A DNA stretch of 64,000 bases, from contig OZ245817.1 of the NCBI GenBank assembly GCA_965228475.1, forward strand, positions 3,840,001 to 3,904,000. The letters are read 5' to 3'. The translations under genes were made by a program, and so were the position numbers. The notes below the pieces were generated by a model. It did no database searches. It saw nothing but the letters and a program-made list of their open reading frames with translations, and was not told the DNA's origin. This DNA comes from Myxococcota bacterium (GTDB lineage: Bacteria > Myxococcota_A > UBA9160 > JAFDDA01). Positions 44,768 through 58,017 of the stretch are shown piece by piece. Each line of letters begins with the position of its first letter. Position 1 is the first letter of the stretch.

Positions 44768-44849
44768 GCAGGCGCGAGAAAGCCCGGCGGCTTGGCCTAC
44801 ACTGCGCCGCGGTGGCCGTTCGCGGGAGCCCGCCACCCAGGAGACGCCG

Positions 44850-45638
44850 ATGATCCTCGACCAGTTCAAGCTCGACGACCAGGTCTGCCTCGTGACCGGC
44901 GCGAGCCGCGGCATCGGGCGCGGCATCGCCCGGGGCTTCGCCGAAGCGGGCGCCCACGTCGTGGGCGCGGCGCGCTCGGAGGAGACCCTCGCCGAGCTCG
45001 TCGCGGAGGTCGAGGGGCTCGGCCGCAAGGCCCTGGCCGTCCCGTGCGACGTGAACGACCCGGCGAGCCTCGACGCGCTCGTGAAGCAGGCGCTCGACCA
45101 GTTCGGCCGGATCGACGTGCTGGTGAACAACGCCGGCGGAACGCCGCCGACCCCCCTCCTCCAGCTCGAGAACGAGAAGTTCGAGGAGGCCTTCCACTTC
45201 AACGTGACCACGGCCATGCACCTCTCGCGCGAGTGCGTGCGCCACATGGTCGAGCGCGGCGAGGGCGGCTCGATCATCAACATCAGCTCGGGCCTCTCGC
45301 ACATGGTCGAGCCGGGCTTCGTCGCGTACGGAACGGCCAAGGCGGCGCTCTCGCACATGACGCGCCTCATGGCCCACGAGCTGGCGCCCCACGTCCGGGT
45401 GAACGCCCTGGCCGTCGGCGCGACGCTGACGGACTCCCTCGGCATGTTCCTGAACGAAGACATCCAGAAGCAGATGTGCGATCTCACGCCGATGGGACGG
45501 CTCGGCACCGTCGAGGACATCGCCCAGGCGGTGCTCTACCTCGCCGCGCCGGCCTCGTCCTGGATGACCGGCAAGATCCTCGAGATCGACGGCGGCACCG
45601 TCGCCTCGAACTGGCCGATCAAGATCCCCGCCTTTTGA
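44850..45638 (+). CDS. SDR-family oxidoreductase
   Basis: TGASRGIG, NNAG, YGTAK. Confidence 0.93.
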   Translation: MILDQFKLDDQVCLVTGASRGIGRGIARGFAEAGAHVVGAARSEETLAELVAEVEGLGRKALAVPCDVNDPASLDALVKQALDQFGRIDVLVNNAGGTPPTPLLQLENEKFEEAFHFNVTTAMHLSRECVRHMVERGEGGSIINISSGLSHMVEPGFVAYGTAKAALSHMTRLMAHELAPHVRVNALAVGATLTDSLGMFLNEDIQKQMCDLTPMGRLGTVEDIAQAVLYLAAPASSWMTGKILEIDGGTVASNWPIKIPAF

Positions 45639-46075
45639 CGGATCCGGAGAAGCTCCGCACGACCTTCGCTGCAACCTTCGGAGTCGGCGATGCTTCCTTC
45701 CGCGCGGCCGGCGGCGTCGAGGGCATCGAGCGCCTCGCCGACGACTTCTACCGCGTCATGGAGGAGTGGCCCGAGGCGCGGACCATCCTCGGCATGCATC
45801 CGCCCGACCTCACGGAGGCCCGCGACCGGCTCGCGCGCTTTCTCTCGGGCTGGCTCGGCGGACCGAGCCGCTACGCCGAGAAGTACGGCTCGATCAGCAT
45901 CCCCGGCGCCCACGCGCACCTTCCGATCGAAGCCGAAGACCGCGACGCCTGGCTCGGCTGCATGGAGCGCGCGATCGCCCGCCAGCCCTACGAGCCGGAG
46001 TTCGCCGCCTACCTGTTGGCCCAGCTCGCCATTCCGGCCGAGCGGATCCGCCAGGTCTGCGAAGGCGAGGACTGA
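45635..46075 (+). CDS. Group II truncated hemoglobin
   Basis: GG..GIERLADDFY, FLSGWLGGP..Y, AHAHLPI, AWL.CM; TTG overlapping TGA. Confidence 0.82.
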   Translation: MTDPEKLRTTFAATFGVGDASFRAAGGVEGIERLADDFYRVMEEWPEARTILGMHPPDLTEARDRLARFLSGWLGGPSRYAEKYGSISIPGAHAHLPIEAEDRDAWLGCMERAIARQPYEPEFAAYLLAQLAIPAERIRQVCEGED

Positions 46076-47470: not shown

Positions 47471-49702
47471 ATGCAGCCGGGCCGGGCCAGCGTGGAGCAC
47501 GAAGTCGTCCTGGTGGGCGCCGGGCACGCCCACGTCCAGATCCTGCGCCGCTTCATGATGAAGCCGGTCCCGGGCGTCCGGGTGACGGTCGTCCTGGACC
47601 GCCCCGAGGCGGTCTACTCGGGCATGGTGCCGGGCTTCGTCGCGGGCCAGTACACGGCCCACGACCTCACGATCGACCCCGTGCCGCTGGCGCGCCGCGC
47701 GGGGGCGCGCGTCGTCCTCGCCCCGGCCACGCGGGTGGACGCCGGCGCGCGCCGGATCGAACTCGAAGGCCGCCCCTCCCTCGCCTACGACGTCGCGAGC
47801 CTCGACGTCGGCTCGAGCGTTCGCGGGCTCGAGCTGCCCGGCGTCCGCGAGCACGCGCTGGCCACGCGGCCGATCGGCGGCCTGGTCGCGGGGGTCGAAG
47901 CGGCGATCGCACGGGCCCGCGCGGCCCGGGGTGAAGCGCCGCTCCGGATCGCGGTGGTCGGGGCGGGCGCTGCGGGCGTCGAGCTCGCCTTCTGCCTGGG
48001 TGCGAGGCTCCGCCGGGAGCGCGTCGCCCACGCGACGTCCGTCTTCACCGCGGGCGACGAACTCCTGCCCGGCCAGCCCGCCCGGGTCCGCGACCGCCTC
48101 GCCCGTCTCCTCGCCGCGGAAGGCATCACGCTCCGGACGGGCTTCGCCGCGACCGCGGTCGAGAAGGATGCGCTGCACGGCTCGGTCGGAGGAAGCGCCG
48201 TCGTCGAGCCGGTGGACCTCGTCGTCTGGGCGGCCGGTGCGGCCCCGTCGGAGCTCCTGCGCGAATCCACCCTGCCCGCGACCGAGGCCGGCTTCCTCCG
48301 GGTGCGCGAAACGCTCCAGGTCGTCGACCAGGATGCCCTCTTCGCCGTCGGCGACTGCGCATGGCTCGACGCCCATCCCTGGATGCCGCGCGCAGGCGTC
48401 CACGCCGTGCGCGAGGGTCCGACCCTCGACCACAACCTGCGCGCGCTCCTCGCGGGGCGCCCGCTGCGCAACCACGAACCCCAGCGCGACTTCCTCACCC
48501 TGCTGAACCTCGGCGAGGGCCGCGCCTTCGGCATGAAGTGGGGCCTTGCCGTCGAGGGCCGCGCGGTCTTTCGCCTGAAGGACGCGATCGACCGGCGCTT
48601 CATGCGCCGCTTCCAGGTGCTCGACGAAGCGGGCGCACCGAGCGCGCACTTCCCCTCGGCCGAAGCCATGGGCATGGACGCCGAAGAGATGGCCTGCGGC
48701 GGCTGCGCGGCCAAGGTCGGCGCGCGGCCCCTCGAGGCAGCCCTGGCCCGGCTCCCGGCGCCGCCCGAGGACGCCTCGGTCCTGCTCGGCCTCGAAACCC
48801 CCGACGATGCGGCGCTCGTCGCCGGCCCGGGCGGCGGCGCCACGCTCACCACCATCGACGGCTTCCGCCCTTTCACCGACGACCCGTTCCTCGTCGGGCG
48901 CGTGGCCGCGATCAACGCCGCCTCGGACGTCCTGGCCAAGGGCGGAACGCCGCGCCACGCACTGGCGCTCGTGACCGTCCCGCCCGATGCCGAAGCCGAG
49001 ACCCTCGCCCAGGTCCTGGCCGGCGTGCGCGCCGCCCTCGACCCGCTCGGAGCGAGCCTCGTCGGCGGTCACACGACGGCGGGCGAGGAGCTCTTCGTCG
49101 CACTCTCGATCCTCGGCGCCGTCGAGGAGGACGCCACGCTGCTCCCGCTCTCGGGAGGGCGGCCCGGCGACGCCCTGATCCTGACGCGCGCGCTCGGCAC
49201 CGGCGTGATCCTCGCCGCGGACATGCAGGGCCGCGCCCGGGGGCCGTGGGTCGCCGAGACGCACCGGCAGATGGTGCGCCCGAACCCGCGCGCCCGCGGA
49301 GCCCACGCTGCGACGGACGTCTCGGGGTTCGGTCTCGCCGTCCACCTCGGGGAACTCGCCGAGGCGAGCGGCGTCGGCGCGCGCGTCCGGCTCGGCGCCC
49401 TTCCCCTGCTGCCCGGCGCCGAGGCGCTGTTCGCCGCGGGCCTGCGCAGCACGGCCCACCCGCAGAACGTCGCGGCGGCGAAGGTCCGCGCCGAGCCCCC
49501 CGCCGCCGACGACCCGCGCCTGGCCGCGCTCTTCGACCCCCAGACCTCGGGCGGCCTGCTGCTCGCGACCGGCCCCGAGCAGACCGAAGCGACGCTCGCG
49601 CGGCTCCACGCCGAGGGCCATCGCGACGCCTGCGTGATCGGCGAGCTCGTGCCCTTCGTGAGCTCGAGCGGCTCAGGCCCGCGCATCGACGTTCAACCTT
49701 GA
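47471..49702 (+). CDS. selD: Selenide,water dikinase fused to N-terminal pyridine nucleotide-disulfide oxidoreductase
   Basis: N-terminal GAGHAH and GAGAAGVE; C-terminal CGGCAAK, DDAA, INAASDV, GGHT, TDVSGFGL, DPQTSGGLL. Confidence 0.9.
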   Translation: MQPGRASVEHEVVLVGAGHAHVQILRRFMMKPVPGVRVTVVLDRPEAVYSGMVPGFVAGQYTAHDLTIDPVPLARRAGARVVLAPATRVDAGARRIELEGRPSLAYDVASLDVGSSVRGLELPGVREHALATRPIGGLVAGVEAAIARARAARGEAPLRIAVVGAGAAGVELAFCLGARLRRERVAHATSVFTAGDELLPGQPARVRDRLARLLAAEGITLRTGFAATAVEKDALHGSVGGSAVVEPVDLVVWAAGAAPSELLRESTLPATEAGFLRVRETLQVVDQDALFAVGDCAWLDAHPWMPRAGVHAVREGPTLDHNLRALLAGRPLRNHEPQRDFLTLLNLGEGRAFGMKWGLAVEGRAVFRLKDAIDRRFMRRFQVLDEAGAPSAHFPSAEAMGMDAEEMACGGCAAKVGARPLEAALARLPAPPEDASVLLGLETPDDAALVAGPGGGATLTTIDGFRPFTDDPFLVGRVAAINAASDVLAKGGTPRHALALVTVPPDAEAETLAQVLAGVRAALDPLGASLVGGHTTAGEELFVALSILGAVEEDATLLPLSGGRPGDALILTRALGTGVILAADMQGRARGPWVAETHRQMVRPNPRARGAHAATDVSGFGLAVHLGELAEASGVGARVRLGALPLLPGAEALFAAGLRSTAHPQNVAAAKVRAEPPAADDPRLAALFDPQTSGGLLLATGPEQTEATLARLHAEGHRDACVIGELVPFVSSSGSGPRIDVQP

Positions 49703-52043: not shown

Positions 52044-52508
52044 CTAGCCCTGGGCGTAGTACGCCCGGAGCCGCGCGTGCCTTCGCACGAAGATGAACCG
52101 GTAGACCCGCTCGAGCACCCGGCCAAGGGGCGCGAACCTCGGCACGAGGCTGCAGACGTCGCGGACCTCAACGCCCCCCTCGACGGCGGTCACGCTCCGC
52201 CGGTGCCGCCAGACACTCAGCAAGCCGTTCGAGGACACCTCGTCGAAGAAGGCGGGCGCCTCGACGCCGCGCAGGGCGAAGCGGTGGGCGTCGATGGGAA
52301 GCACCCCCAGCGCCAGGAAGTACGAGGTGAAGTGGCTCTTTCCGTCGGCGGGGACGTCCTCGACGGTCGGGTAGCGCGCGGGATGGGTCATCCGGACGAG
52401 GGGCGCCAGCTCGTGGTTGACGCCCTCCCAGGTGGCGATGCGGTCCCACACGTCGCGCTGCGACGCATGGGCGAGGTGGGACGCGATCTCGAACCCGAAT
52501 TCCGTCAC
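52044..52508 (-). CDS. Hypothetical protein, SRPBCC-like
   Basis: VWDRI..WEGVNHEL, WRHRRSV, F..RH pattern. Confidence 0.6.
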   Translation of the reverse strand: MTEFGFEIASHLAHASQRDVWDRIATWEGVNHELAPLVRMTHPARYPTVEDVPADGKSHFTSYFLALGVLPIDAHRFALRGVEAPAFFDEVSSNGLLSVWRHRRSVTAVEGGVEVRDVCSLVPRFAPLGRVLERVYRFIFVRRHARLRAYYAQG

Positions 52509-52580
52509 GGAGGCTCCCTGGTACCGAATGGCTCACCCCCGAGCGGTGACACATGCGGGCCCGAGCTGCCACCCAATTGC

Positions 52581-53291
52581 ATGAAGAACCGCACCCTCTT
52601 CCTGATGATGGGCCTCGCCGCCCTGTCGTTCTCCCAGCCGGCCCTGGCGCTGAACTTCGCGTGGACGGGTACGACCATCGACGCGCCCGTCGACGACGGG
52701 ACTGGCGTGTTCGCGGGCAACGGGGCGTTCTCTACGTTCTCCGGCACGTTCCAGACGGGCGATACCTGTGGCGCCGGCTGCTCGATCAGCAACGAGCCGG
52801 GCGAATCGGACTACGAGTTCTCCCTCGGAAGCCAGTTCGGCGGCACCCTCAGCGATGGCGTCGTCAGCACGAGTGGCGACGTCTCCTACATCAACGTCCA
52901 GGACAACATCGCACTCGACGCCGACGAGGCGGCGCTCCTGAGCTTCCTGCTCGGCGCGACGGTCACGGCCGGAACCGAGGTCGACGTCTGGACGATCGGA
53001 GCCGAGGACGACGCGGTCTACTTCGACGAAGAGCTCATCGACGGCGGCTACGTGGAGGTCGTCTTCATCTCTCTGGACACCGACCTCTTCGACGACACCT
53101 CCTTCCGCCCGGCTCCGCCGGACGCCTCCGAGGTGGATCTCGTCGCGTTCCTCATCGAGGAAGCCGAGATGGGCGAGCAGATCTACAACGCCTTCGGCAC
53201 GGTCGATTCCTTCGCGACGGTCCCCGAGCCGGGCCTCGCCCTGCTCCTCGGCGCGGGCGCCCTCGGCCTCGCACGCCGCCGCCGCGCCTAG
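52581..53291 (+). CDS. PEP-CTERM sorting-domain protein
   Basis: Signal peptide, acidic body, C-terminal VPEP-hydrophobic-RRRRA. Confidence 0.88.
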   Translation: MKNRTLFLMMGLAALSFSQPALALNFAWTGTTIDAPVDDGTGVFAGNGAFSTFSGTFQTGDTCGAGCSISNEPGESDYEFSLGSQFGGTLSDGVVSTSGDVSYINVQDNIALDADEAALLSFLLGATVTAGTEVDVWTIGAEDDAVYFDEELIDGGYVEVVFISLDTDLFDDTSFRPAPPDASEVDLVAFLIEEAEMGEQIYNAFGTVDSFATVPEPGLALLLGAGALGLARRRRA

Positions 53292-54500
53292 CTAGGAAGG
53301 CCCGGGCCCGAACCGCTCGATCAGGCGGAAGATCGGAACCGCCACGCGGCGCAGCGCCGGCGCCACGGCCCGGGCGAGCGCGCCCGGCTCCGCCGTGTTC
53401 CGCGCCGACCCGAACTCCTTGAGGCCGAGCTCCTCCTGGAGATCCCCGGCCAGCGTGTTCACCGGCGCGTCGAGCGGGATCCCGGTCGAGTCCGCGATGC
53501 GCGTCATGCGCTGGAAGTTCCCGACCACGGCCGCCGCGTCGACCAGCCCCTCCGGGCCGACCGCATCGAGCAGCACCTGCCGCGCGGCGGCGAGCTCGGC
53601 CTCGCTGCCGCGCACCGCCGCTTCGGTGAAGGCGAGCAGCTCCGGAGCGTGCGGGATCCCGCTGTCCGCCGCGGCCGCGTCGTCCGTGACGGCGCTGACG
53701 TCGATCTCCGCACCTGCGTTCTCGCCGCTCACCCGGAGCAGCAGGGAGTGCGAGCTCGTTCAGTAGAAGCACTCGGCCAGCGCGGAGACCCGGCCCGCGA
53801 CCAGCTCGATCTGCCGGCGGTCGAGCGTGCGGCCGCGGTCGAGATCCATCATCTCGGCGGGCGTCAGGTAGTGCGCCGCCGAGAGATCCTTCAGCTGCCG
53901 CACCTCGTCCGGCACGAGCGAGAGGGCCTTCAGCACGTTCCCCGTCTTGGGCATCCCATCGAAGAGATCCTGCTCGGCCCCGCGCGCGCCGCGCTCGGTC
54001 ACCCAGGGAACCCACGCCTCGCCCTCCACCGCACCCGGCGGGCGGTAGCGGCTCGGCGTGCCCGCCTCGGGTTCGCGGAAGGGGCGCGGCGGCACGCCGA
54101 TCCCGCGGCAGAAGGCGTCGATCGAGACCACGGTCACGATGACGCCGATCGTCTCGACGTAGTGCTCCTTCGAGAGCCCCGCCGCCATGACCTTCTCGAA
54201 CCAGACGTGGGAGAGGCGGCTCGGGTCGTTCACGACCTGGTGCACGACCTCGACCACGGCGGCCGGCACCGCGAACTCCGAATCGTGCTCGCCCTCGACG
54301 GCCAGGGGCGAGAGCGCCTCCTTGCGCTTCGCACAAAGCGTGCAGGCGGGTGCGCTGCGCACCTCGCGCGCGATGGCCGTCCGCTCGAGGCCGTTCCACC
54401 AGGTCCCGGCCTCGGCCAGCCGCACGAAGGCCCGGTGATGGGCCTGCTGAAGATCCTTGCGGACGGGGATGGCGGCGTCGGAATAGGAGGTGTCGAGCAC
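53292..54500 (-). CDS. Tandem AhpD/CMD-like peroxidase, probable selenoprotein (UGA 53760-53762 = Sec)
   Basis: Two ORFs in the same frame joined by one TGA giving ECFY-U-TSSH; equivalent ACTLC in the N-terminal repeat; SECIS-like hairpin follows. Confidence 0.78.
53706..53754 (-). promoter_or_regulatory. Bacterial SECIS-like stem-loop
   Basis: GCUGCUC-CGGGU-GAGCGGC upper stem, loop begins 25 nt after UGA; lower CGCAC/GUGCG pairing. Confidence 0.65.
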
Positions 54501-54556
54501 GGCACTAGGCTGCCCTTCTACACCCTTCGATGTCAAGGCGGGGCCGGCCGACGGAC

Positions 54557-55798
54557 TCAGGGCGCGGGGAGCGTCGAGTCCGGCGGGGCGAGGAGATCGA
54601 GAATCTCGTCGTGGCTCCGGCGCGCATCCTCGCGCCCGAGCTCCACCAGCTGCGAGGTGTAGCAGCCGTCGAAGTAGAGATAGGAGAGCAGATCGGCCTC
54701 GTCGTCCGGCACGCCCTGTCGCGCGAGGCGCGTGAGGAGGCTCGCGAGCACGCCCATGTCGCGGGCATTGCCGCGGCGGGCGTGGCACTCCGCCGCGAGC
54801 CGGCCGAGGTCTTCGCTCGGGCGCAGCACCACGCTGCTCACGGGTCGGTAGCCCGCGCCGCGCTGCTCGCGCACCACGGGGTTCATCCGCTCGAGGTAGT
54901 CCGGGCCGAAGGCCCGCTCGCCCTGGGCGATCATCGCGTTCACGAGCTCGATGCGCTGGAGCTCGTACTCGAGCTGGTCGAGCGTCAGGGCGTCGAGGAC
55001 CTTGCCGAGCATGAAAGCCGGCTGGGTCACGACCTCCTCCGGGTACGGCTCGACGGCGGGGGCGGTGTCGCGCGAGCGGCGCAGCGACACGACGAGGATC
55101 CGGTCGCAGCGCAGGCGCAGCGCCGGGGAGAGCGGCGTGTTCATGCGCAGGCCGCCGTCGACGTAGTAGTTCCGCCCGATGCGCACGGCCGGGAAGAGGA
55201 ACGGGATCGCGGCGGAGGCGCGCACGTGCCGCGCGGTGATGGTCTCGCGGATGGCGTGGGAGTTCGGGTCGTGATCGAAGGGGTGGGTGTCCGCGAGCGG
55301 TCCGTCCATGAAGACCGTGACGCGCCCCGCCCGGATCTCCGTGCAGGAGATGCAGAGCGCCCGGCCGCCCTCCGCGGCGAGGTTCTCCTGCAGGTGGGTC
55401 CAGGGGACGCGCTCCTCGACCATCTCTTCGAGCGGCGTCACGTCGACGAGGCCGCCGATCACCTGACGGCGCGCGGCCGCGCCTTCCCGGGCGCTTCGCC
55501 GGAAGCCGAGCAGCCGCAGCGGGACGCCGACGACGTCGGTCCAGTCGAGCTCGAGCACGTCGGCGACGGACATCCCGGTCCAGGTATCGTCGAGCCGGCG
55601 CGCGCGATGCTCGGAGTCCATGTGGCTGCTCGCGAGGGTGTAGGCCGCGTGGATCGCACCGACCGAAGTGCCCGAGGCGACCGAGAACTCAAAGGTCCGG
55701 GGAAGCTGCGGGTAGACGTACTCGTACAGGTAGGAGAGCACCCCGGCCTCGTAGGCGCCGCGCGCCCCGCCGCCCGCCAGCACGAGCCCGGCCCTCAT
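54557..55798 (-). CDS. Patatin-like phospholipase
   Basis: GGGARG, GTSVG, DGG motifs. Confidence 0.92.
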   Translation of the reverse strand: MRAGLVLAGGGARGAYEAGVLSYLYEYVYPQLPRTFEFSVASGTSVGAIHAAYTLASSHMDSEHRARRLDDTWTGMSVADVLELDWTDVVGVPLRLLGFRRSAREGAAARRQVIGGLVDVTPLEEMVEERVPWTHLQENLAAEGGRALCISCTEIRAGRVTVFMDGPLADTHPFDHDPNSHAIRETITARHVRASAAIPFLFPAVRIGRNYYVDGGLRMNTPLSPALRLRCDRILVVSLRRSRDTAPAVEPYPEEVVTQPAFMLGKVLDALTLDQLEYELQRIELVNAMIAQGERAFGPDYLERMNPVVREQRGAGYRPVSSVVLRPSEDLGRLAAECHARRGNARDMGVLASLLTRLARQGVPDDEADLLSYLYFDGCYTSQLVELGREDARRSHDEILDLLAPPDSTLPAP

Positions 55799-58017
55799 CG
55801 CGGACCTCCGCGCGCCTGATCGACGAAGATCGGCGAGGACCATGCTCGCTCCTGCACCAGGGCGAGACAGTCGTCGGCGGCGTCCGTGCGCCAGCCCCCG
55901 TGGCACGGCGTCGTCGAGACGACCCGCCCGGCTTCATCGCGCACGGCCCGGACGTTGGCGCCATTGATGGCCGGCGTCGGTTCCTGCAAAGCGCGCACGT
56001 AGTAGACCGCGTCGCGGCCGGCGCGCGGGAACGTCGGATCCTCGAATGTGACGCGGCAGCCGCCGGGGCCCGGTTCGCACGGCAAGGTGCGCCACGGATC
56101 TTCGATGAGGAGCGCGAGCGGCTCGGCGGCGTTCGCCTGGGGCCGCACGCGCACGACCTCGATGGCGGTGATGGCGTGGCGCTCGTCGCTCGGGTGGTGG
56201 CACTCGCCGCGGCAGAGGTGTTCGAGCCGCTCGGCCGAGAGCCCGCGGACCGAGGTCTCCGGGCAGCCCGGCTGCTGCTCGAAGGCGCCGAGGGCGCGGA
56301 CCTCGAAGCGCGGCGCTTCCGAGAGCACGGCCTCGCCGCCCATCGGCACGGGTGCGGCGGGATCGTTCACGAGGTCGAACCAGAGCAGGATGCGCGGGCC
56401 GCTCGTTCCGTAGACCCGGCGCTCCATCAGCGCTTCGAAGATCGCCTCGCGCGTGCGGTCGCGGGCGTGGACCGCCGCGAGACCGCCGGGGTAGAGGAAG
56501 CTCGCCGTGCGCTCGACGTCCATCAGGCCGCGCAGGCTGCGGTCCGGCCGCGTCGCTTCCTGGGCGCGCCGGGGGTCCTGCTGCTCCCCCATGATGAACT
56601 CGCGCGTCAGGCGGTCCACGAGCGGGGAGGCGATGCCGCGCGCGTCCGTGAAGTCGGTGCGTCCGACCTGCTTGTAGCCGGTGCCGGGCCGGCCGTCGTG
56701 GTTGTCGCTCGAGCCGACCAGGCCGAAGCGGAAGCGAAGCCGCTCTCCCTCGGCGTCGCGATCTTCGCCGGAGAGCGCCAGCGCCGCCTGGGCGGACATG
56801 CCGGGGCGGAGGTTCATCGCCGGTTTGAAGCAATCGCGGCACTGATCGCAGTCGAGCCAGTCCTCGGGCTGGGTGTCCGGGATCGCGAGGTGCGGCTCCG
56901 TGCTCGCCGCCGCGGCGAGGCGGCGCGCCTCGAGGACCCGTTCCTCGCAGACGTCTTCGGGCAGGTCCCCGCAGCGCTCGCGGATGATCTCTCCGGCGCG
57001 CCAGCAGCACGGCAGGTAGCCGGGGCTCGGCTCGGGGCAGTACGGCGCCTCGGCCTCCGGGTCCGGCTCCGTGAAGCTGCGGAAGGCCTCGCTGTTGCCG
57101 TGCCCCGAATAGACTTCGAGCAGACGCTGCATGTCCGGGCGGTGGGAGGCTTCGTCGAGCTGCACGGCGAGGCTGGCGCGCGGCGGCGCGTGGATTCCCC
57201 AGGCCAGGCCGTGGGGGATCACGAGGGTCGGCAGGCCCCATTGGGCGAGCTTCTCGAACAGCACGTCCGGCGTCGGCGCGTTCTCCCGGCAGTCGGCCGG
57301 CAGCTCGCGCACGTCGACCCCGGCCGGGCAGTCTTCGATGCGCGTCATCCGCTCGACCCACCAGAGGAAGTCCGCGTAGTCCGAGAAGCCGAGGCCCGGC
57401 AGCGCCTTCATCACGCGCACCGCCTTCATGCCCGCGCCGGGCGCGCGGTTCATCGTCGCGTCGGGGAGCGAGGTGATCGGGCGCGTCGGGAGCTCGGCAT
57501 CGTCGAGCCCGGGGAAGATCACGTTCTTGTGTCCGTAGTGCTCCTCGGGCCGCGGGCCGGCCTGGGTCCACTCCCAGCCGACGAAGGCCACGAGGTCCGG
57601 GTCGGCGGGGTCCGCCGCCACGGCGTTGCACTGGCGGATGGAGTCCTTCGTCGCCTCCCACCGCTCCGGAGTCAGGCCCTCGGCGTGGTCGTTGATCGAG
57701 AAGAAGTCGAGGGCCGAGCAGTAGCGCGCGAAGTCGCAGGCATCGGCGGGCGGGTGGGCGCCTTCACTCCCGAACAGCGGGAGTTGGAAGACGAAGGAAT
57801 CGATCGAGTAGCTCGTGTGGACGTGGAGGTCGCCGAACAGGATCGGCCGCTCGCCCGAGACCTCGAGCGCCGCCCGCGCCTCGGCCTGGACGCGCTCGGC
57901 CGCTTCGACCTCGTGCGCGGGGCGGGCCGCCCCCTCGATCTCACCGGGGGAGAGGTCTTCTCCGCCACAGCCGAGGGCGAGAAGCGAGAGTGCCAGCCCG
58001 AACCCTGCCCTCTTCAT
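55795..58017 (-). CDS. DUF3604-like PHP-fold metallohydrolase lipoprotein
   Basis: LALGC, GDLHVHTSYS, NDH, SSDNH, YYVR, ERAWSSPI. Confidence 0.82.
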   Translation of the reverse strand: MKRAGFGLALSLLALGCGGEDLSPGEIEGAARPAHEVEAAERVQAEARAALEVSGERPILFGDLHVHTSYSIDSFVFQLPLFGSEGAHPPADACDFARYCSALDFFSINDHAEGLTPERWEATKDSIRQCNAVAADPADPDLVAFVGWEWTQAGPRPEEHYGHKNVIFPGLDDAELPTRPITSLPDATMNRAPGAGMKAVRVMKALPGLGFSDYADFLWWVERMTRIEDCPAGVDVRELPADCRENAPTPDVLFEKLAQWGLPTLVIPHGLAWGIHAPPRASLAVQLDEASHRPDMQRLLEVYSGHGNSEAFRSFTEPDPEAEAPYCPEPSPGYLPCCWRAGEIIRERCGDLPEDVCEERVLEARRLAAAASTEPHLAIPDTQPEDWLDCDQCRDCFKPAMNLRPGMSAQAALALSGEDRDAEGERLRFRFGLVGSSDNHDGRPGTGYKQVGRTDFTDARGIASPLVDRLTREFIMGEQQDPRRAQEATRPDRSLRGLMDVERTASFLYPGGLAAVHARDRTREAIFEALMERRVYGTSGPRILLWFDLVNDPAAPVPMGGEAVLSEAPRFEVRALGAFEQQPGCPETSVRGLSAERLEHLCRGECHHPSDERHAITAIEVVRVRPQANAAEPLALLIEDPWRTLPCEPGPGGCRVTFEDPTFPRAGRDAVYYVRALQEPTPAINGANVRAVRDEAGRVVSTTPCHGGWRTDAADDCLALVQERAWSSPIFVDQARGGPR

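Follow-up and report, generated by a model that had tools for sequence, protein, structure and literature searches.

A two-domain AhpD-like gene of the NF041238 family from a Myxococcota genome, with a conserved in-frame UGA predicted to encode selenocysteine

AhpD-like selenoproteins carrying a CxxU motif have been described since 2005 (PMC1088965, PMC2398784), and at the second position of the CxxC redox motif pairs of selenocysteine (Sec) and cysteine homologues are reported to be the rule (PMC1088965). One such family, 'hypothetical protein 1' of the Sargasso Sea selenoproteome, comprised four Sec sequences with a CXXU motif together with Cys homologues, and the passages on it in PMC1088965 offer no functional evidence. 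A 2026 review (PMC13188914) equates this family with NF041238, and its table lists the 'AhpD-like 1/2' and 'CMD domain-containing' selenoproteins (COG2128 / PF02627 / TIGR01926) as separate families of one domain with abundant Cys homologues, which have in common with the gene described here a CxxU in a CMD fold.

The AhpD-core 'peroxidase-related' proteins of solved structure (2prr, or YP_296737.1, 6k40, 2oyo, 2pfx and 3c1l) are single-domain chains of ~190 residues with a Cys-Cys pair, and they share the CMD fold and an E(-12)...C-x-Y-C...H(+4) arrangement with the C-terminal domain (C-domain) of the present protein. Mycobacterium tuberculosis AhpD (1gu9), whose partners are AhpC and the lipoamide system, belongs to the same fold class and has a CxxC...H centre. 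The E/C/Y/C/H set constitutes the catalytic dyad and proton relay of YP_296737.1 and AhpD, with the motif of the mycobacterial enzyme lying at a different place in the chain (PMC4674687). Human Sestrin2 (5cuf) has been described as two AhpD-like domains related by two-fold pseudo-symmetry, one of them catalytic and the other diverged.

Here we analyse a gene on the minus strand of a 64,000-nucleotide stretch of DNA (the window). It matches NF041238, or 'hypothetical protein 1', over its full length and has in common with it the CFYUT signature, the CxxU motif, a hairpin downstream of the UGA and homologues with Cys; no defining feature separates the two, and the gene is a member of that family. 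It differs from the AhpD-core proteins in being a fusion of two such folds and in having a predicted Sec as its second redox residue. Taken together, the locus most probably represents one 402-residue NF041238 selenoprotein gene in which UGA-247 would be read as Sec by means of the hairpin, encoding a two-domain CMD/AhpD redox protein; we put the probability of this reading at roughly 0.87. The assignment to an AhpD-type selenoprotein, which an initial annotation had proposed from the nucleotide sequence, is supported. The features of the locus are collected in Table 1.

Table 1. Positions in the window of the predicted selenoprotein gene, its elements and two upstream neighbours
Feature	Coordinates	Strand	Basis or remarks
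Whole selenoprotein gene (predicted)	53292..54500	-	402 codons; probable GTG start 54498-54500, TAG stop 53292-53294
UGA, predicted selenocysteine codon 247	53760..53762	-	TGA conserved at the same codon in homologues; TGC in L121-L123
C-domain catalytic segment (predicted), E232-x11-C244-F-Y246-U247-T-S-S-H251	53748..53807	-	invariant in 21 sequences; aligns with 6k40
C-terminal canonical CMD/AhpD domain, residues about 160-345	53466..54023	-	PDB profile search, Pfam CMD, TIGR01926, structural matches
N-terminal divergent CMD/AhpD-fold domain, residues 1 to about 150	54051..54500	-	modelled alone; structural matches
N-domain C53-T-L-C56 (CxxC)	54333..54344	-	C53/C56 invariant, as are H72/H87
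Basic C-terminal tail, poorly conserved, one long helix (residues 374-397)	53295..53465	-	alignment and model; absent from paralogue L021
SECIS-like hairpin, 17 nt after the UGA	53723..53743	-	8 bp; comparative pairing and covariation
Hairpin 5' arm, UGCUGCUC	53736-53743	-	part of the SECIS-like hairpin
Hairpin loop, CGGGU	53731-53735	-	family loop pattern C-G-K-G-N, G residues in loop
Hairpin 3' arm, GAGCGGCG	53723-53730	-	part of the SECIS-like hairpin
Patatin-like phospholipase	54557-55906	-	upstream, same strand; 56 nt from its stop to the selenoprotein start
DUF3604 protein, 953 residues	55795-58656	-	upstream, same strand

One reading frame and its conserved internal UGA

The minus-strand open reading frames at 53760-54788 and 53292-53732, which the initial annotation had taken for one frame of ~402 aa split by a single TGA at codon 247, do lie in the same frame with one TGA between them, and both the coordinates and the length were reproduced: a single 402-codon frame occupies 53292-54500 and is interrupted only by the TGA at 53760-53762. 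Translation across this codon gives ...ELVAGRVSALAECFY-U-TSSHSLLLRV..., with the motif E-C-F-Y-U-T-S-S-H at the junction. Translation probably starts at the GTG at 54498-54500, the position at which the aligned homologues also begin, and the TGA is then codon 247; a TTG (54534-54536), twelve codons further upstream, may serve as the start instead. No purine-rich stretch precedes the GTG of the 'downstream ORF' (53730-53732), which falls within the loop and 3' arm of the hairpin, in line with the earlier remark that it has no clear ribosome-binding site. The presence of one frame with an internal TGA is confirmed. A scan of positions 53000-56200 for sigma-70 promoters and intrinsic terminators returned no matches.

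The stretch containing the TGA showed no differences in contigs from three public runs belonging to two studies, at least one of which runs may be the source itself. A sequencing or assembly error as the origin of the codon was ruled out by these identical contigs together with the same TGA in all homologues examined.

Family membership was assessed with NCBIfam NF041238, an equivalog model ('AhpD_rel_CFYUT', alkylhydroperoxidase-related (seleno)protein) with a curated cut-off of 175 bits. The read-through product scores 469.1 bits (E 9.9e-141) over profile positions 1-356 of 357, spanning both former reading frames, and in a six-frame search of the genome the gene scores 461.8 bits with one TGA inside the match. 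The Pfam CMD match around the motif is marginal (23.2 bits against a cut-off of 23) and that to TIGR01926 is sub-threshold (32 versus 81.8 bits).

Exactly one TGA is found in all 41 above-cut-off matches to the family in 61 genomes of the same order, and the CFYUT motif recurs in 21 of 21 order-level loci. When 401 genomes were sampled across the phylum, 45 had the family, all of them in the class of the window genome, and 61 of their 62 matches contain one TGA; the exception spans only profile positions 1-157, before the site. With one genome taken per species, a scan retrieved 551 relatives, of which the best 80 loci contain 90 CFYUT sites and belong, by title, to Myxococcota/'Deltaproteobacteria', Binatia, Dehalococcoidia/Chloroflexota, Gamma- and Alphaproteobacteria, Methylomirabilota, Limnocylindria and others. 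A pattern that permits Cys found no TGC or TGT among 85 matched sites, all of which are TGA, as are the three loci that the pattern missed. Conservation continues past the TGA (F329, R334, T339, G340, I341, L343 and D344 are invariant in the 21-sequence alignment), and the two halves of the protein are always linked and in frame. Overall, the conservation of the TGA is far beyond chance.

Cysteine forms exist outside this set. Three metagenome loci (L121-L123) have TGC at the site (NQCFYCTTSH...), and L121 and L122 retain the CxxC of the N-terminal domain (N-domain); the codon is TGA in L124-L127 and TGC or TGT in L128-L130, which are more distant. The comparison with homologues that the initial annotation had called for therefore turned out in its favour, with the TGA kept at the same codon, some relatives carrying Cys, and the halves linked and in frame. 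The L123 contig has its frame broken 52 codons upstream of the motif, unlike the near-identical L121 and L122, which may reflect a frameshift or an assembly error. A cluster representative of 402 aa (P0126) reads QSFYGTTLH, with S...G where the others have C...U/C; it is perhaps redox-dead, unless the sequence is in error.

Additional copies were also observed. The genome itself encodes a second paralogue at 4913339-4914376 on the minus strand (L021:1492-2565), a protein of 357 residues and 39% identity with its own in-frame TGA and hairpin and without the basic C-terminal tail. Tandem copies on one strand, spaced by ~1.1 kb and each containing a TGA, occur in Dehalococcoidia/Chloroflexota MAGs (L074, L085, L087, L091, L093, L099, L105, L111 and L113) and in one Binatia locus (L054); in the second copy of these pairs the hairpin loop differs (GGUCG) and the motif reads CFYUTISH.

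Two AhpD-fold domains in one chain

The AlphaFold2 model of the full-length protein is all-helical (pLDDT 93.9, pTM 0.93) and shows a molecule built as an intramolecular pseudo-dimer, each of its two domains having the CMD/AhpD fold; the AhpD fold that had been anticipated, with structure prediction as its check, is found in both halves. In a profile search of the PDB, residues 192-339 match the Deinococcus radiodurans AhpD 6k40 with an E value of 1.6e-11, and 2oyo, 2pfx and 3c1l are matched as well; the E...C-V-Y-C...H of 6k40 aligns residue for residue with the catalytic segment of the C-domain. Structural superposition (VIA-align) of this domain on CMD-family chains yields Z scores of 12.8-7.7, the top ones being 12.8-12.4. 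Foldseek ranked 2prr and 6k40 best in the PDB (probability 1.00, TM 0.70 on the target), with no match at E <= 0.001. M. tuberculosis AhpD superposes with Z 7.7 on the C-domain and 6.9 on the N-domain, and is only a distant match in sequence (E 0.14). Among the 21 aligned sequences the invariant residues of the C half comprise E232, C244, F245, Y246, U247, T248 and H251, with more up to D344, and those of the N half are C53, C56, H72, H87, D92 and R95.

The N-domain is more divergent. Modelled alone (pLDDT 93.0) and compared with 48,161 chains, its eight best matches all have the CMD/AhpD fold (2pfx, Z 8.4; 2gmy, 7.4; 3lvy, 7.1; 1gu9, 6.9; 6ohi, 6.7; 2q0t, 6.0; 4g9q, 5.9; Sestrin2, 5.0), and the next, unrelated chain scores 4.1; such values are modest for helical proteins, and the argument lies in the uniformity of the top rows. 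The profile search additionally placed residues 65-140 on residues 114-189 of 2oyo, its C-terminal half. Of the catalytic set this domain retains only the CxxC, the Tyr and His of the relay having been lost. The initial annotation had aligned by eye the N-terminal repeat ...REVRSAPACTLC with ...GRVSALAECFYU; a profile-profile alignment of the two halves (hhalign) recovers the same register, with C53xxC56 placed on C244xxU247, at a statistically weak level (E 0.022, probability 2%).

With the whole chain as query, VIA-align ranks human Sestrin2 first, superposing 237 residues over model residues 1-342 with an rmsd of 3.2 and Z 16.1. The catalytic domain of Sestrin2 is N-terminal and has a single Cys, whereas here the C-domain is the predicted catalytic one, with Cys and Sec, and the N-domain keeps its CxxC. 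The likeness is structural only, as a Pfam scan at E up to 1 returned CMD and not the Sestrin family (PA26).

The hairpin, the selenocysteine machinery and the proposed redox cycle

Published bacterial SECIS models carry rules for spacing and for the apical loop. The hairpin following the UGA is a stem-loop a short distance downstream, with G in its apical loop. Its support is comparative, because folding of the single sequence gave a structure no stabler than that of shuffled sequence (z 0.69) and Rfam at its gathering threshold reported nothing in the whole window. In the 21-sequence alignment 98.2% of the cells pair. Extending the set to 111 sequences (100 distinct) gives 93.5%, with four of the eight pairs changing on both sides; in 26 rows a C-G pair becomes A-U, at the cost to the protein of a Leu-to-Met and a Gly-to-Val/Ile exchange. 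Pairing falls to 27-56% when the partner is shifted by one to three columns, and the covariation score was reached by none of 500 shuffles. The Cys forms, without the G+C-rich hairpin, have only a weak A+U-rich one (-5.2 kcal/mol versus -11 to -20 in the Sec forms). The analysis would thereby supply a clean, covariation-supported candidate SECIS for NF041238.

The genome, a single 5.0-Mb contig, encodes SelA (530 bits), SelB (311 bits) and SelD (257 bits), all over their cut-offs, and a tRNA-Sec of 69.9 bits, likewise over cut-off, which ARAGORN calls SeC with anticodon tca. The search for selA, selB and selC by which the initial annotation had proposed to check its reading thus finds all three, and selD too.

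Two other ways of understanding the TGA were weighed. Were it a genuine stop, the locus would comprise either two distinct genes or a pseudogene cut short by a nonsense mutation, in keeping with the two reading frames of standard ORF calling and with public gene calls that end at this codon. Against this, the TGA is kept in every complete homologue across several phyla with the downstream part in frame and conserved, Cys forms read straight through the site, a covarying hairpin follows it, the Sec machinery is present in the genome, and the downstream GTG, lacking a ribosome-binding site, is buried in the hairpin; we consider a true terminator extremely improbable here. Hardly any more credible is decoding of UGA-247 as Trp, Cys or Gly, whether by near-cognate decoding or by a reassigned code, given a complete selA/selB/selC/selD set and a SECIS-type hairpin whose spacing from the UGA is canonical, whose loop contains G residues and which is lost in the Cys forms. 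In addition, TGA is the true terminator of the same gene in 12 of the 21 homologous loci, and the site falls on the last residue of a CxxC, a place at which Sec in one homologue is regularly matched by Cys in another (PMC1088965).

A different question is whether a real selenoprotein might perform other chemistry, for instance as a reductive dehalogenase resembling Bmp8 or as another thiol/selenol-dependent CMD reductase. The debrominase Bmp8 (6ohi) does rank second among the structural matches, with 178 residues aligned at an rmsd of 2.9 and Z 12.8, CMD-fold enzymes are chemically varied, no ahpC-type neighbour is conserved, and Dehalococcoidia MAGs carry the family, frequently in tandem. However, Z scores of 12-13 are tied among several CMD chains, the closest sequence relatives with solved structures are AhpD and 'peroxidase-related' proteins, and every aligned sequence retains the complete E/C/Y/C(U)/H relay known from the AhpD-core peroxidase-related proteins, so that we regard such an activity as rather unlikely.

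On the preferred reading, that of an AhpD-type selenoprotein, the hairpin 17 nt after UGA-247 would recruit SelB and Sec-tRNA(Sec), and Sec would be inserted instead of termination. The C-domain would then present a complete AhpD-type centre, with Glu232 twelve residues before Cys244, followed by Tyr246, Sec247 and His251. By analogy with the AhpD-core enzymes, this centre would most likely reduce an oxidised substrate by alternating between a selenol/thiol state and a selenylsulfide joining Cys244 to Sec247; the most plausible substrate would be a hydroperoxide (bulky or lipid) or else an oxidised peroxiredoxin. The CxxC of the N-domain is predicted to be a second, auxiliary redox or structural centre, and may act as a second dithiol or bind metal together with H72 and H87.

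A more speculative extension, which we consider possible rather than probable, is that the family is a prokaryotic counterpart of the Sestrin architecture, a self-contained two-centre redox enzyme in which Cys53/Cys56 and His72/His87 would form a resolving dithiol or a Cys2His2 metal site that recycles or gates the Cys244-Sec247 selenylsulfide, with a bulky lipid hydroperoxide as substrate. The choice of substrate follows weak hints from neighbouring genes (patatin phospholipase, enoyl-CoA hydratase, SDR and alpha/beta-hydrolase), each present in at most 10 of 101 loci. In the class of the window genome every family copy seen is predicted to use Sec at the site, and on this view Cys would be unable to take its place.

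Genomic context and state of annotation

Clustering of open reading frames around 101 loci identified no conserved operon partner in more than 10 of them, and thus no conserved neighbour that would hint at a substrate or a reductant, the large clusters being antisense shadow frames of the gene itself. The commonest neighbours are enoyl-CoA hydratase (10 loci), SDR (~10), DUF3604 (8, in varying orientation), histidine phosphatase (7) and alpha/beta hydrolase (7). Apart from DUF3604 and one Ndh-SelD, the neighbours in the window recur only in a genus mate (L023).

Several other genes of the window deserve mention in their own right. The convergent plus-strand frame at 52077-53291, whose end abuts the stop of the selenoprotein gene (53291 versus 53292), has no Pfam match; its product contains an internal signal-peptide-like MKNRTLFLMMGLAALSFSQPALA and ends in VPEPGLALLLGAGALGLARRRRA, which we take to be a PEP-CTERM-like sorting tail. 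A further plus-strand frame (44792-46075, 427 residues) carries a bacterial-like globin domain only at its C-terminal end (303-399), with no Pfam match in the N-terminal 300 residues. At 47471-49702 on the plus strand, 3.6 kb from the selenoprotein gene, lies an Ndh-SelD fusion of 743 residues, in which a pyridine-nucleotide-disulfide oxidoreductase is joined to selenophosphate synthetase, with Pyr_redox_2 and AIRS domains and a Cys-type C-G-G-C-A-A-K; a similar fusion adjoins the homologue in L038, and Ndh-SelD fusions are mentioned in PMC2398784.

Public gene calls largely stop short of the UGA. In a collection of 5.8 billion proteins, all 120 of the best relatives listed, the call for the window's own gene among them, are ~245 residues long and end in C-x-x right before it, which bears out, for the N-terminal part, the expectation in the initial annotation that the gene would be mis-annotated elsewhere. 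Likewise, the C-terminus reads C-[FYW]-[FYW] in 93 of the 150 best cluster representatives and is a C-x-[YF] variant in about a dozen more. Another 22 of the 150 are full-length with C printed at the site, where the actual residue may be Cys or Sec, since the database prints U as C in full-length representatives and the two were told apart at the DNA level only for L121-L130.

The suggestion that the selenoprotein had been hidden does not hold for the family, which is already known: its cataloguing dates from 2005, publications list it, and a curated NCBIfam equivalog model is named after the motif. A pipeline that uses NF041238 should call the gene correctly, and as a discovery the gene matters little. 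For the double-CMD, Sestrin-like architecture and the invariant N-domain CxxC, we found no description in the open-access literature searched.

The practical value of the analysis lies in showing that most public gene calls of NF041238 are truncated at the UGA. Beyond annotation, a fusion of two AhpD folds that resembles Sestrin2 in its model and carries an invariant second CxxC suggests experiments on a widespread, never-studied enzyme, whose hosts are largely uncultured Myxococcota, Binatia and Dehalococcoidia.
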